Made by a program: the position numbers and the translations under genes
From: a virus
Taxonomy: Duplodnaviria; Caudoviricetes
Length of the DNA stretch: 51,461 bases
Strand: one strand, 5' to 3'
IMG/VR virus record: IMGVR_UViG_3300020129_000348
Span: 1 to 51,461 of that record
Notes under the pieces: generated by a model
The model's database searches: none
Told to the model about the DNA's origin: nothing
The model's input: only the letters and a program-made list of their open reading frames with translations
In this document: positions 22,213-50,849 of the stretch, in pieces
Layout of the letters: each line of letters starts with the position of its first letter
How positions within the stretch are numbered: the first letter of the stretch is position 1

Positions 22213-22788
22213 GTTGGCGCTCTTCTCACTTTCGGTTCGTCGGTTGATCCTCAATGCCGTTCGCGCTATGAGGCAGGCATTCGAAGATCAACAGGCCATT
22301 CTTGGTTACTCCGCATTGTCGATAACCGGCCTTCAGAAAGCATCGGCCAGGATCGCGCTTGTGGCGTACCTTCTTGGGGTCAACGTAGGTGTACAGGCGT
22401 TCGCCGGGCCAGCGTTGCCATGCAATCTCGTTCGCCAACCGGATGAGTTCGCTCGACCGTCCCGAAGTACTGCCTTCGTTTCGGAAGACCGCACAATTAA
22501 CGCCAACCTGTCCATTGTCGCTTTTGAATTTGCGCCACGCGAACAGCGCACGTGCATCAGGAGTCAGCAGAAGCGTTTTCTCGCCAGGGCCAACCAACTG
22601 GAATATTTTACGGAAGGCACGCGCCGTGTAGTGCCGCTTGAACAGCGACATTGCAGTCGTGTTGCCATCGCGGATCGGAATCCAGCCGACGCCAAACAGA
22701 AATGGCTGTTCACTCATCAGTACCACTCTTGCCCAGCGCACGCACGAAAGCAAGGTCCGTTTAGCACAGTACTGAGACAAGCGCCAAC
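22213..22788 (-). mobile_element. Cassette C1 (inverted ends), cargo Mom/GNAT-like gene
   Basis: GTTGGCGCTCTTCTC...GTTCGCGC left; GCGCACGCAC...GAGACAAGCGCCAAC right. Confidence 0.85.
22226..22717 (-). CDS. Mom-like/GNAT-fold phage protein
   Basis: RHY...NCAVFRNE...SSELI...LYTYVD...GRCFLKAGY; function inferred. Confidence 0.6.
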   Translation of the reverse strand: MSEQPFLFGVGWIPIRDGNTTAMSLFKRHYTARAFRKIFQLVGPGEKTLLLTPDARALFAWRKFKSDNGQVGVNCAVFRNEGSTSGRSSELIRLANEIAWQRWPGERLYTYVDPKKVRHKRDPGRCFLKAGYRQCGVTKNGLLIFECLPHSANGIEDQPTNRK

Positions 22789-22807
22789 GACATAAAGAGG
22801 AACCTAA

Positions 22808-23257
22808 ATGCAATACACTATGAATCAGTACTCACCAAGCTATCTTCAAGGGGTCAACCCCGCTCCGTCGTCCGAAATCGGATTCGAGCCACGGCCCTAC
22901 ACTTACCTGTACTCACCGGCGAATGGTCAACTCACGGCTTTGCAGGTTGTAAACCAGGACTCGGTTGCAATTCAGACTGACGCTGATTTTCTACTGTTCG
23001 GCTTCTATCTTTCACAGTTCACCGGCGCATTTCAAATCCTGTTGACCGATGCAACCGGCTACCAACTGTTCAGCGGGTTCATGAACTCGGGAGCGATTTC
23101 ACAGTCAAGTGCTGATCCGACTGTATTCAGCCCTTCTCACCCATTTCCAGCAGGAGGAAAGATTCTGATTTCAATCCAGGACCTCTCGAATGCGACGAAC
23201 CCACTTCAGATTGCTTTCGTGGGCGAGAAGATGTTCCGGGTTAAACTCAATCAGTAG
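22808..23257 (+). CDS. Putative small jelly-roll capsid protein
   Basis: IQTDADF...PFPAGGKI...DLS...IAFVGEK beta pattern. Confidence 0.55.
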   Translation: MQYTMNQYSPSYLQGVNPAPSSEIGFEPRPYTYLYSPANGQLTALQVVNQDSVAIQTDADFLLFGFYLSQFTGAFQILLTDATGYQLFSGFMNSGAISQSSADPTVFSPSHPFPAGGKILISIQDLSNATNPLQIAFVGEKMFRVKLNQ

Positions 23258-23265
23258 GCTTTTAT

Positions 23266-23997
23266 GTTGGCGCTCTTCTCAAGTGCGGTTCGTTGGCTGC
23301 GGATTCTCGGCGTTCGCGCTCTGAAGCACGAATTCTTTACAGTCGCACGGGACACATGGAGCATTTGTATCATGGATGCCGTGGCCTTTTCTGCCGCTGC
23401 AAAGCTGGCTATTGGCAGGATGATGGATGTACCATGGATGCCCGCATTGACAGAGTTCACTCCAGAGACGTTGCCTTTCAGCACGCACGCTATGAAACTG
23501 GCGTTCCACTGCGCGGATGATTGCATATCGACAATGGTTGCAAATATCGTCCGCTTGCCTCAACGCCGGGTTGCTTTCCATCAGCGCGTGTGCGCAATCG
23601 CCGTGAAAATGAAGGCCAGTCAGATCAGTGATAGCTGCGGCGAAGTTTTTGTACGAGATCTGCCGGGCCGTCGCGGCGGCTTCCCAAGAATTCTGCTGAA
23701 GTATCAAGTCGCGGCACGCCGCGCAGATGTCTCCTTGTTTTTCACACAGCACCCTAGAACAATTGTTGCAGTAGTAACCGCCAAGGGCATGGCGCACAGC
23801 TTCAGGGAGTTTTTGGTCATCAATCCGCTGTTTGAGTGTGCTGATCATCCGAGATGTCATCCGACGCGTATCAAGGATTCGCTGGTCGAGATCATACAGC
23901 CGCTCTTCAAGCTCTTCTGGGGTCATGCCTTGCACTGTAGCCCAGCGCGCGCACGGACGCAAGGCCCAGTCAGCCTAGTACTGAGACAAGCGCCAAC
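23266..23997 (-). mobile_element. Cassette C2 (inverted ends)
   Basis: Both ends closely resemble C1 ends. Confidence 0.85.
23279..23926 (-). CDS. Cys-rich hypothetical protein (C2 cargo)
   Basis: Multiple CxxC; ends SANAENPQPTNRT inside cassette end. Confidence 0.7.
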   Translation of the reverse strand: MTPEELEERLYDLDQRILDTRRMTSRMISTLKQRIDDQKLPEAVRHALGGYYCNNCSRVLCEKQGDICAACRDLILQQNSWEAAATARQISYKNFAAAITDLTGLHFHGDCAHALMESNPALRQADDICNHCRYAIIRAVERQFHSVRAERQRLWSELCQCGHPWYIHHPANSQLCSGRKGHGIHDTNAPCVPCDCKEFVLQSANAENPQPTNRT

Positions 23998-24008
23998 GAC
24001 AAATTAAA

Positions 24009-49188: not shown

Positions 49189-49190
49189 GT

Positions 49191-49505
49191 TTATCTCGGC
49201 CCCTGTTCCATTGATGGCCGCACATTGACCACCAGAAGTCCGTCGTCGAAGACGTTGAAGGTGATGTCCCAGTATTTAGCTTTCGCCCATGTGCCGCATG
49301 CTGGACGCGGCCATAAATGCACCCATCGTATCCGCTCTGGATCGTGATGCCCATCTCGAATAATCCAGATATCCCCTTCGTTGTCGCCATTCCCGTCCCA
49401 GCAATCTATGACCCGAGCGTGATCAAGCCACATCCATTTGCTTCTCGATGCGGTTTGACAACCAATCACTAAGAGCAATGAGAGGCATACAAACCAGAGC
49501 CTCAT
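49191..49505 (-). CDS. Lipoprotein-like protein (C14 cargo)
   Basis: Start ATG supplied by cassette end; LLVIGC lipobox. Confidence 0.6.
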   Translation of the reverse strand: MRLWFVCLSLLLVIGCQTASRSKWMWLDHARVIDCWDGNGDNEGDIWIIRDGHHDPERIRWVHLWPRPACGTWAKAKYWDITFNVFDDGLLVVNVRPSMEQGPR

Positions 49506-49876
49506 TTGCGCGAACGTCTGTGAGGCTCTAGTTACGAGCCAAAGCCGAGAAGAGCGCCAACGACTAAAAAAGTGGAAGTTCATAAGACCGAGGATAAAGG
49601 CGAACAACAGACAAAGCCAATAGGAACAAGGTACTATTTTACGAAGAAAAACACCGCAGTACGAAATAGGGCCTTTTCAGAAGTGAAGTTTTGGAGTAGA
49701 CTGAAACCCTGTGAAACTACCAGCGAATCTCCCTAACGAAGTGAAAACGCCGTGAAGATTCGACACTCCGAGGTAGCGAGAGGTCCGTAAACAACTGTGG
49801 CGTCCGAGGTTCCACTCTCGAACGCCACGATAAACCAACCCATTGCAGAAAGGCGACCAAACCTAAATGCTCCTAC

Positions 49877-49904
49877 AGATTAACACATCCCGCAGACCTG
49901 TCAA
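49877..49904 (-). promoter_or_regulatory. sigma70 promoter for leftward transcription
   Basis: TTGACA-N16-TAATCT on minus strand. Confidence 0.55.
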
Positions 49905-49932
49905 GTACCAAAAAGCAGTAGTTTCTTTATAC

Positions 49933-50849
49933 GTTGGCGCTCTTCTGAACGCTAAGTTACGGTCAGCAGCACCTAGCGTTCGCGCAAATGAGGATGGGGC
50001 ATGATCTGGCCACATCGTGTGATCGACGACACATGCAGGCCGGAAGCTGGCCCGATGCTCATCCGGTATTTCCTGTTCCGGTCCAAATACCTCGGCATCT
50101 ACCTCCACCACTTTCTACGCTCAGACAACGACCGCCATGTCCATGACCATCCCTGGACTTTCATCACATTCTTAATCGGTGGTGGCTACTGGGAACACAT
50201 TCCAAAAAATCACGAGGCCGGTTGGTGTGGTTGTGGAGCATGGCACCTCCGACGAAACGACGACTTGCTACCGTACATTGCCCGCATACGCCGTCACCGA
50301 TTCAGTATCTTGTACCGACCCGCAACCTGGCGGCACTGGGTTGAAATCGACAAGCCAGCATGGACGCTGGTGTTTCGTTTCCGCCGCGAACGTGACTGGG
50401 GATTCATTACGGAAAAGGGCTGGGTGGATCATGCAACCTATGACAGGGAATGGTGCGACGAATGAAAACTAGGAGTGCGGAGCAGATTGCGGTTGTCAAT
50501 TGGTTCTACCGTAACGGCGGGAAAGCTACAGCACTTAGCGCGACAAAACGCATCGCCGAAGAACTCAAGGAGCTACTGGACGCCGTTGAGCATGGCGATT
50601 TTGAGCACGCACGAGAAGAAGCCGCGGACGTAGGGATTTGCCTATTGATGGCCTCAGAGTGCCTCGGCTTCGACTTATTTGCGGCGATGCGCTGGAAGCA
50701 ATCCATAAACGACCACCGCCAATGGCACGCGGATGAACACGGCTGCCTGCATCACGTCAAAGGCACAGACCCGCGCGATTCCAGCCCGGCTTCAGAGGGC
50801 GCACGCGAAGAGCTACTGACCCTCGCTGACAGCCGAGAAAAGCCCCAAC
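49933..50849 (+). mobile_element. Cassette C15 (inverted ends), two cargo genes
   Basis: GTTGGCGCTCTTCTG...GTTCGCGCAAATGAGG left; CAGAGGGCGCAC...GAGAAAAGCCCCAAC right. Confidence 0.9.
50001..50465 (+). CDS. Cupin-like phage protein (C15 cargo)
   Basis: YLHHF...HDHPW...GGYWE...H...WGF. Confidence 0.75.
   Translation: MIWPHRVIDDTCRPEAGPMLIRYFLFRSKYLGIYLHHFLRSDNDRHVHDHPWTFITFLIGGGYWEHIPKNHEAGWCGCGAWHLRRNDDLLPYIARIRRHRFSILYRPATWRHWVEIDKPAWTLVFRFRRERDWGFITEKGWVDHATYDREWCDE

Follow-up and report, generated by a model that had tools for sequence, protein, structure and literature searches.

It is only partly understood how phages can take up or exchange small accessory genes while their essential operons stay intact. 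The classic morons of lambdoid and other tailed phages bring their own promoter and terminator and are not known to share a boundary repeat. In the virus record IMGVR_UViG_3300020129_000348 of IMG/VR, which was analysed as a whole (51,461 bp, estimated completeness 93%) and is referred to here as the window, small genes are framed by copies of a single two-box element, which is the subject of this report. The literature used for comparison comprised the promoter-early stem-loop (PeSL) elements of T4-type phages, the start-associated sequences (SAS) and the stoperators. The closest described system is that of the PeSL (Arbiol et al., 2010, PMC2839356; Comeau et al., 2014, PMC4122927). As far as these two accounts go, PeSL are composite intergenic cassettes extending from a stop codon to a start codon, between which recombination shuffles ORFans (PMC2839356); this recombination explains insertions, deletions and replacements between related phages, and both mini-circles and promoter and terminator activity were demonstrated (PMC2839356, PMC4122927). 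SAS and ESAS of the cluster K mycobacteriophages are described as having a ribosome-binding-like core upstream of the starts of non-structural genes, with a translational role suspected (PMC3203893). Phage L5 is described as carrying more than twenty 13-mer stoperator sites in short intergenic spaces, in an orientation tied to transcription (PMC9283540).

The element of the window is best read as a standardised translational connector module, with homology between copies driving the shuffling of the genes that they frame. This reading is held tentatively, at a little under even confidence. A profile built from the aligned copies (nhmmer) located 36 copies in the window, 22 on the plus and 14 on the minus strand, and a 37th, partial copy was recognised as an inner box alone at 28421-28436 (minus). 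Alignment of the flanks gave a conserved unit of 75-90 nucleotides (nt), composed of an inner box GCYTCAGAGSGCGAACG, a semi-conserved spacer of about 30 nt with a well-kept GAC 9-11 nt ahead of the next box, an outer box GAGAAGAGCSCCAAC and an A-rich tail, for example (N)ATAAA or NNATGA. The outermost 15 bp are the best conserved part, and the two boxes are near-direct repeats of AGAGCGCSAAC. At up to two mismatches the outer box had 35 matches in the window against 0.26 expected, a number reached by none of 100 shuffles. After each of the 14 minus-strand copies the next one is on the plus strand, the inner gaps measuring 107-907 nt, and these 14 pairs together with the pair containing the partial copy make up 15 pairs; seven further copies are solo, all on the plus strand. 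Relative to the adjacent gene, 22 of the 36 copies run along it and 14 are opposed to it. An earlier note on this DNA, made from its letters alone, had described 37 copies, one of them partial, and 15 inverted pairs, all of which were recovered. Its cassette picture and its inverted ends also stand, but the ends are longer than the roughly 60 bp it gave, and it had missed the polarity of the ends, the translation of the elements and the many solo copies at gene ends.

The relatives compared were four whole records, namely the window, G001 (45 kb, with terminal repeats), G002 (41.8 kb) and G003 (58 kb), and 17 partial metagenome loci obtained by searching contigs with the structural gene B (22808-23257). 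Other structural genes of the window are A (starting at 21422), E (24009), C (26895) and D (27577). In loci L177-L190 the genes A, B, E, C and D are contiguous in this order and without the element. Among 15 loci with both A and B, twelve had a short element-free junction of roughly 70-200 nt with a hairpin, a T-run and a ribosome-binding site, two had element-free inserts, and a single one, L193, had an element-flanked cassette. In the relatives the B-E and E-C junctions measure only 0-10 nt and are thus taken to be translationally coupled. In the window, cassette 1 lies between the hairpin and T-run of gene A and the ribosome-binding site of gene B, cassette 2 begins 8 nt past the stop of B, and cassettes 3 and 4 occupy the E-C junction. 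Locus L191 has three small pairs of its own in the B-E, E-C and C-D junctions, which would have arisen independently of those in the window. Judged from this comparison, the pairs bound real insertions that are present or absent between relatives, as the earlier note had supposed; the relatives are distant (46-82% amino acid (aa) identity) and the events cannot be dated. The features of this region, with the evidence for each in brackets where one was recorded, are as follows.

22203-22287, minus: left end of cassette 1, 3'-type for the minus-strand cargo X (profile, frame)
22226-22720, minus: cargo X of cassette 1 (phrog_24928; homologues in G002 and L193)
22157-22795, plus: bridging open reading frame (ORF) of cassette 1, 212 aa, stopping 12 nt short of gene B (ORF list)
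22723-22798, plus: right end of cassette 1, on the 5' side of the cargo, GAGACAAGCGCC subtype (profile)
23259-23332, minus: left end of cassette 2, 3'-type (profile, frame)
23264-24007, plus: bridging ORF of cassette 2, 247 aa, with its ATG 6 nt past the stop of B and its stop 1 nt ahead of the ATG of 24009-25190
23927-24007, plus: right end of cassette 2, 5' side, same subtype as the right end of cassette 1 (profile)
25198-25273, minus: left end of cassette 3, 3'-type for the minus-strand cargo 25196-25630 (profile, frame)
25184-26083, plus: bridging ORF of cassette 3, 299 aa, overlapping the stop of 24009-25190 and forming an ATGA overlap with ORF 26080-26361
26010-26084, plus: right end of cassette 3, 5' side (profile)
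26277-26349, minus: left end of cassette 4, 5'-type (CATTTGCGCG), whose reverse complement gives GAGG and a mini-ORF before the cargo ATG at 26354
26806-26884, plus: right end of cassette 4, 3'-type, read through by cargo 26614-26898, which overlaps the ATG of 26895-27386
27482-27565, plus: solo 3'-type copy in the small ORF 27383-27589, upstream of 27577-28332 (profile, frame)

Two side observations concern the A-B slot. The two inserts without the element, in L180 and L182, are of about 470-510 nt and hold small ORFs, and the slot therefore appears to take accessory genes by element-independent routes too. A conserved hairpin with a CTCCTCCGAG loop, followed by a T-run, stands after gene A both in the window (22112-22210) and in the A-B junctions of L177, L178 and L193; from its form it is probably a terminator or attenuator behind the most conserved structural gene.

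The cargo of cassettes 1-3 lies on the minus strand inside a plus-strand operon, and across each of these cassettes the plus strand is open from the outer edge of the left element to the tail of the right one. The cassette at G001 40004-40951 and the three pairs of L191 are bridged by an open operon strand in the same way. For the three window cassettes and the G001 one, the operon strand is 100% open, whereas antisense windows from 40 control genes were fully open in 0 of 366 cases at 570 nt, 0 of 244 at 730 nt and 0 of 183 at 870 nt. For all six cargo ORFs examined, the codons of the two strands are in register, so that openness requires the avoidance of TTA, CTA and TCA in the cargo. These codons were absent from five of the six, with two occurrences in the sixth; the chance of such avoidance is 0.0013-0.17 per gene, with a product of about 1e-11. 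The homologue of cargo X in G002, whose neighbours lie on its own strand, has 4-10 stops in every plus frame, and the one in L193, a poor contig, has one stop. The minus-strand genes are regarded as the real ones because cargo X has its PHROG match on the minus strand and identity to G001 is 45% for the minus-strand products against 30% for the plus-strand ones. The plus-strand ORFs from 21422 to 28332 form an unbroken chain of 12 consecutive frames with gaps of -13 to +42 nt. It is suspected from these frames that selection keeps translation running across the inserted cassettes for the sake of coupling, perhaps as a protection from Rho-dependent polarity. As a side observation, plus-strand coding occupancy over 21422-28332 is near complete even though at least four real minus-strand genes lie inside.

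The two ends of a cassette differ in kind, which was seen from their relation to reading frames. In the 3'-type, the inner box is preferentially read as (L/P)-Q-S/R-A-N; over 101 copies the L-Q-S-A-N frame was the longest upstream open frame in 53, one of the other two frames in 30, and 18 had no long frame. The outer box is read in all three frames. An ATG or GTG lies exactly 2 nt past the outer box and begins a frame of 50 codons or more in 14 of 96 copies, and in the copies that were read it is an ATG forming an ATGA stop/start overlap with the next gene. The subtype CCTCATTTGCGCGAACGCAAGGTG has 10 copies in the window, nine of them inverted on the 5' side of the cargo by the cargo-strand assignments, and its reverse complement GCGCAAATGAGGC provides a GAGG and a start codon. 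In six of these ten copies a mini-ORF of 3-4 codons results and the long ORF starts 8-19 nt past the conserved ATG, and in two more the conserved ATG itself opens the long ORF. The GGGC/GCCC subtype stands on the 3' side or solo in nine of 10 copies, the strand assignments here resting partly on a codon score. From the positions of the subtypes, a cassette is laid out as an inverted 5'-type end, the cargo and a 3'-type end.

It is proposed from this layout that the element is a gene-boundary connector specific to this phage family and acting mainly on translation within operons. The 3'-type, in sense orientation and fused to the end of a gene, would supply the last codons, the stop and a purine-rich, A-rich run-up to the next start, and the inverted 5'-type would provide the cargo with GAGG as its ribosome-binding site and with a start codon. 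The outer edge of the element would also give an ATG for reading inward from outside. A gene framed by both forms could thus sit in a coupled operon in either orientation with the chain of translated ORFs intact; for an antisense cargo, a bridging ORF on the operon strand would lead from the ATG of the left element to the stop of the right one. Recombination between copies, homologous and probably performed by phage recombination functions, would add, delete or swap the framed genes. Such recombination is inferred since about 30 near-identical copies are present per genome and are common to distant phages, and the shuffling of framed genes by it would be analogous to that of the PeSL cassettes.

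The frame preference could also mean that the 3'-type encodes a shared C-terminal peptide, (L/P)-Q-S/R-A-N-A with a tail rich in Pro, Thr, Ser and Gln, which could mark accessory proteins for packaging, turnover or export. By eye, the ORF that holds the partial copy at 28421 still ends in ...SANAENP, as such a peptide would lead one to expect. However, codon entropy was 0.34, 0.47 and 0.51 bits at positions 1-3, with no third-position excess and near-invariant third bases of the GCG and AAC codons. The reading of the outer box in three frames, the wide differences between tails past SANA and the fact that 5'-type copies are not read in this frame also disagree with it, and the peptide is considered very improbable.

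The other features located along the window were the following.

1-59, plus: element copy cut by the start of the window, solo, just upstream of the helicase-methylase gene 71-3250 (nhmmer, E 2.3e-9)
3150-3227, plus: solo 3'-type copy, read through by ORF 71-3250 (LQSANA...) (profile, frame reading)
6098-6167, plus: solo copy (profile)
28421-28436, minus: partial copy, inner box only, ending the small minus-strand ORF 28409-28615 (by eye)
28683-28758, plus: right end of the pair at about 28422-28748 (profile)
31478-31557, minus: left end, 5'-type, ahead of a plus-strand ASCH-domain cargo (profile)
32048-32118, plus: right end, 3'-type, read through by the ASCH ORF, with the recombinase ATG 6 nt past the box (profile, frame)
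32114-32746, plus: small serine recombinase, Resolvase N-terminal and HTH_7, outside the cassettes (Pfam, E 1.9e-39)
34216-34298, plus: solo 3'-type copy at the end of the methyltransferase ORF 33053-34255 (profile, frame)
35184-35264, minus: left end, 3'-type, with the ATG of the next minus-strand gene (35191) 2 nt past the box (profile, frame)
35439-35522, plus: right end on the 5' side of the cargo; the minus-strand ORF 35188-35514 begins at its outer edge (profile)
39203-39280, minus: left end, 3'-type, with the ATG of 38292-39209 2 nt past the box (profile)
39880-39960, plus: right end, 5'-type, for the minus-strand cargo 39535-39885 (profile)
40535-40615, minus: left end, 5'-type (profile)
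40723-40803, plus: right end, 3'-type, GGGC/GCCC variant (profile)
42113-42193, plus: solo 3'-type copy at the end of 41632-42192 (profile, frame)
42589-42668, minus: left end of the pair 42600-43180 (profile)
43114-43182, plus: right end of the pair 42600-43180 (profile)
43683-43761, minus: left end, 5'-type (profile)
43912-43987, plus: right end, 3'-type (profile, frame)
44337-44411, plus: solo 3'-type copy at the end of 43994-44422 (profile, frame)
44760-44838, minus: left end, 5'-type, ahead of cargo 44834-45076, which is 53% aa identical to G001 40415-40630
45299-45380, plus: right end of the pair 44768-45369 (profile)
45677-45758, minus: left end, CATTTGCGCG subtype, the lone 5'-type copy on the 3' side of a cargo (profile)
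46533-46613, plus: right end, 5'-type, for the minus-strand cargo 46031-46540 (profile)
48509-48587, minus: left end, 3'-type, read through by the minus-strand ORF 48501-49097; the HNH gene 48064-48504 starts just after
49495-49572, plus: right end, 5'-type (profile)
49923-50001, minus: left end, 5'-type, whose conserved ATG opens the ORF (profile)
50780-50856, plus: right end, 3'-type, upstream of the ATG at 50869 (profile)

Cargo recurs in new contexts. Cargo X is 71% aa identical to G002 40496-41071, which likewise has a minus and a plus copy at its sides, here amid unrelated minus-strand genes, and nucleotide similarity between the window and G002 ends at the outer ends. With the homologue in L193 (50% identical), which lies after gene B, cargo X is found in three contexts: A-B in the window, after B in L193 and an unrelated minus-strand region in G002. 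The spacer beside X in G002 is, by eye, of the common subtype of G002 and unlike that of the window, which places the breakpoint within the element and not at its outer edge. The G001 cassette 39996-40959 joins homologues of the first genes of two window cassettes, cassette 3 and the pair 44768-45369.

Three side observations were made on cargo and neighbouring genes. The minus-strand ORFs 45750-46010 and 46031-46540 both match one G003 protein (8456-9220) at 67-69% identity, and this cargo gene of the window thus looks split or frameshifted. The cassette cargo 39206-39535 (minus) matches the G003 homologue of structural gene A at 56% over 46 aa. The HNH/DUF968 gene (window 48064-48504, minus; G002 38580-39008; G003 8073-8459) is conserved in all four genomes, and in three of them it begins directly after an element copy, including one of the five copies of G003.

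The earlier note had inferred non-autonomous cassettes moved in trans, and this is the main rival of the connector reading: the pairs would be the ends of mobile cassettes that are inserted, excised or inverted by an enzyme encoded elsewhere, such as the serine recombinase at 32114-32746, the conserved HNH nuclease or a host enzyme. The unfailing succession of a minus and a plus copy agrees with this, as do the four cassettes in junctions that are element-free in relatives, the near-empty head-to-head pairs at L044 3334-3479 and G002 20835-21014, and the strong conservation of the outermost 15 bp. So, too, does an abundance that does not follow kinship, and the serine recombinase is found in the window, G001, G003, G009 and G010, with the element directly preceding the gene in the window and G001. 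On the other hand, G002 holds 32 copies and no Resolvase-family (PF00239) gene, a homologue of the serine recombinase being absent from both G002 and G006, while G003, G009 and G010 have the gene and only 1-5 copies; the only recombinase of the genome does not track element abundance. A tyrosine integrase (PF00589) was found in none of the four genomes. By eye, no target duplication was seen at the four filled junctions compared with the empty ones. Partners in a pair are of different subtypes and score 11.3 against each other compared with 13.6 for non-partners, and no co-evolution of partner ends, as from an RNA panhandle or homogenised inverted repeats, was seen. The breakpoint inside the element beside cargo X, the many solo copies and the lack of dyad symmetry or a hairpin in the element also argue against dedicated ends. 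Movement in trans is accordingly possible but doubtful. The discrete units, the empty A-B, B-E and E-C sites and the reappearance of cargo elsewhere bear the earlier note out, while its dedicated enzyme found no support; no transposase or integrase is enclosed by a pair, as it had said, but the serine recombinase gene adjoins the pair 31484-32108. A further possibility, seen as somewhat less probable again, is a polar, repeat-bounded cassette that a trans-acting function drops into coupled operons either way round and that the bridging frame makes non-polar; if so, cargo genes would be under selection on both strands.

Several points weigh against the connector reading. A pure connector requires neither synonymous conservation nor covariation, and both were found: in the inner box, synonymous positions show no less conservation than the rest, which implies selection on nucleotides as well as on any peptide, and the pair 12-63 covaries (CG in 85 copies, GC in 7, UA in 1, UG in 1), with a score reached in none of 500 shuffles. 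The cargo strand in several cassettes was assigned from ORF length and a codon-usage score that separated the strands weakly. The distance from the purines of the outer box to the ATG 2 nt past it is about 11 nt, which is long for a ribosome-binding site. Homologous recombination alone cannot seat a first cassette in an element-free junction, and the window has four such junctions filled. The relatives are few (the four whole records and 17 partial loci), no RNA run was among the runs listed for 22000-31999, and reads from runs X1-X4 over 21300-41299 assembled into short contigs only.

The covariation is what a structured RNA would show, for example a ribozyme, a processing site or a coupling switch formed by pairing of the inner box with the outer one. 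The GCGC cores of the two boxes are complementary (GCGC:GCGC, 4 bp) in 99.2% of cells over 94 copies, and another position is linked as well (A..G in 79 copies, C..A in 18); it shares this antiparallel register and stands beside a possible tandem G.A. Against this, folding of the element gave a mean z-score of -0.06 over the 94 copies with only 3% below -2 and neither a hairpin nor dyad symmetry, RNAalifold returned a 4-bp helix only, and Rfam had no match at gathering score in the whole window and none at E up to 10 in 22000-51461. The covarying pair is a single one, and subfamily descent or template-switch mutation could give the same pattern. An RNA of this kind was given very little weight.

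The conservation of nucleotides including synonymous sites, and the near-direct repetition of the boxes, would also suit binding of the boxes by a phage protein that halts or insulates transcription in the manner of stoperators, where outward-facing pairs would keep accessory-gene transcription out of the neighbours. In its copy number per genome of about 50 kb, in its asymmetric 15-bp core and in lying at gene ends, the element is similar to the L5 stoperators. This explanation is nevertheless unlikely: 14 of the 36 copies in the window are oriented against the cargo, no helix-turn-helix or repressor family was found in 10 small proteins near the divergent region (about 39.9 kb), and it leaves the frame preference, the ATGA overlaps and the bridging ORFs unexplained. 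A sigma-70 promoter had been suspected by eye in the element, with the GAC as part of the -35 region and ATAAA as the -10 region, but a scan for the sigma-70 consensus, which may not be that of the host, gave 11 sites in 32000-51461 against 11.9 expected and none inside the element, and the suspicion is unsupported. Simple scans for intrinsic terminators showed no excess.

The copies in relatives, and the element DNA shared with G001, are counted in favour of the connector reading. By profile there were 36 copies in the window, 31 in G001, 32 in G002 and five weak ones in G003, and five further viral records had one to three each. Between the window and G001 hardly any DNA can be aligned apart from the element, which is 75-87% identical, while the proteins they have in common show 25-52% identity. 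The structural genes of the window are closest to those of the element-poor G003 (33-60% aa) and of L177-L180 (69-82% for gene B), which are element-free over 9-12 kb, and abundance therefore does not track kinship. GenBank phages and PLSDB plasmids gave no match to the element, and DNA pattern scans found true copies on viral contigs only. The pattern scan of genome contigs, representing hosts, gave at least 120 loci, and among the matches listed (80 of 120) none was a true element by nhmmer; this is not proof of absence from hosts. It should also be noted that head-to-head minus/plus pairs with about 10-160 nt between inner boxes occur at L044 3334-3479 (a locus of record G007, classed as a provirus) and at G002 20835-21014, 22420-22698 and 23561-23852; from their form they could be landing pads or remnants.

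As to the window itself, no near match was found among GenBank phages, no match among PLSDB plasmids, and no tRNA within it. It encodes a helicase-methylase fusion, glycosyltransferases, an SLT lytic transglycosylase, the HNH/DUF968 protein and the small serine recombinase, and the transglycosylase suggests that the host is a bacterium. The labels 'capsid-like' and 'spike-like' given earlier to some of its genes were not confirmed, as none of eight structural-region proteins matched a PHROG family with a structural function; the only one of the eight with any match, 19330-20028, hit an unnamed family and, weakly, a glycosyltransferase one. Parts of 22000-31999 are contained in 19 soil or rhizosphere DNA runs, the best share being 0.39. 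No strand-changing or skipping joints were seen at elements in the short X1-X4 contigs, which are uninformative on inversion or excision, and the traceable odd joints or loose ends (39230 to 31525; one at 26319) were other element copies. A short acidic, GA-rich coding stretch at about 40312-40349 draws in numerous unrelated soil contigs whose ends hang loose to either side; this is a low-complexity artefact of read placement and not a junction. Collagen triple-helix repeats were recognised in the protein of 5191-5973 (plus; Pfam, E 2.7e-9). The ORFs 33053-34255 (400 aa) and 33064-34248 (394 aa) lie on one strand and occupy the same DNA in different frames, with a DNA methyltransferase PHROG match on one of them, and hence long alternative-frame ORFs are found here outside cassettes too.

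A connector for each accessory gene is one suggested answer to the question of gene gain raised at the outset, as it would provide both coupling to the neighbours and shared homology for exchange. The bridging ORFs would be a natural counterpart of engineered non-polar cassettes. If translated, they would make a clear case of antisense-strand selection on real genes, and annotators would be warned that long ORFs lying opposite each other may each carry meaning. As a marker, the element is convenient for recognising this uncultivated group of soil phages.

Set beside known systems, the cassettes share with integron attC and pdif modules promoterless genes with a conserved site, recurrence of the modules and the lack of a recombinase inside. 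They differ from attC in having no IntI-type tyrosine recombinase (none in four genomes) and no hairpin palindrome, and from pdif in having, by eye, no 11-6-11 Xer site. The inverted ends recall terminal inverted repeat transposons and miniature inverted-repeat transposable elements, whereas the partner ends are no more alike than non-partners and a target duplication was not seen. For a serine-recombinase site of the res or hix type, neither consistent co-occurrence with the enzyme nor, by eye, a dyad was found. Like morons, these are single accessory genes that relatives lack and that stand between neighbouring genes of a conserved operon, but here every unit is framed by one element family.

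The stoperators of cluster A mycobacteriophages, as described in PMC9283540, are likewise asymmetric, present at more than 20 sites per genome and placed at gene ends or in short intergenic spaces; their orientation is linked to gene direction, with which 22 of the 36 copies here agree. They are however 13-bp single sites with a known repressor, in contrast to a two-box unit of 75-90 nt with 14 of 36 copies anti-oriented. SAS and ESAS are also family-specific repeats with a ribosome-binding-like core near start codons. In the account of PMC3203893, SAS are 13 bp long, stay with particular gene families, show no bracketing by inverted pairs and are not reported at presence/absence breakpoints.

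The PeSL, so far as PMC2839356 and PMC4122927 describe them, come nearest: they too are present in tens of copies per genome, extend from an upstream stop to a downstream ribosome-binding site or start, and are concentrated near dispensable ORFans in plastic regions. A large number of copies beside non-essential genes, and presence/absence breakpoints within the repeats, were found here as well. The present element is without the sigma-70 consensus and the stem-loop that define the PeSL in these descriptions. It also overlaps the upstream coding end in a preferred frame, and its two orientation-specialised forms bracket the cargo as an inverted pair, with bridging ORFs across the antisense cassettes.

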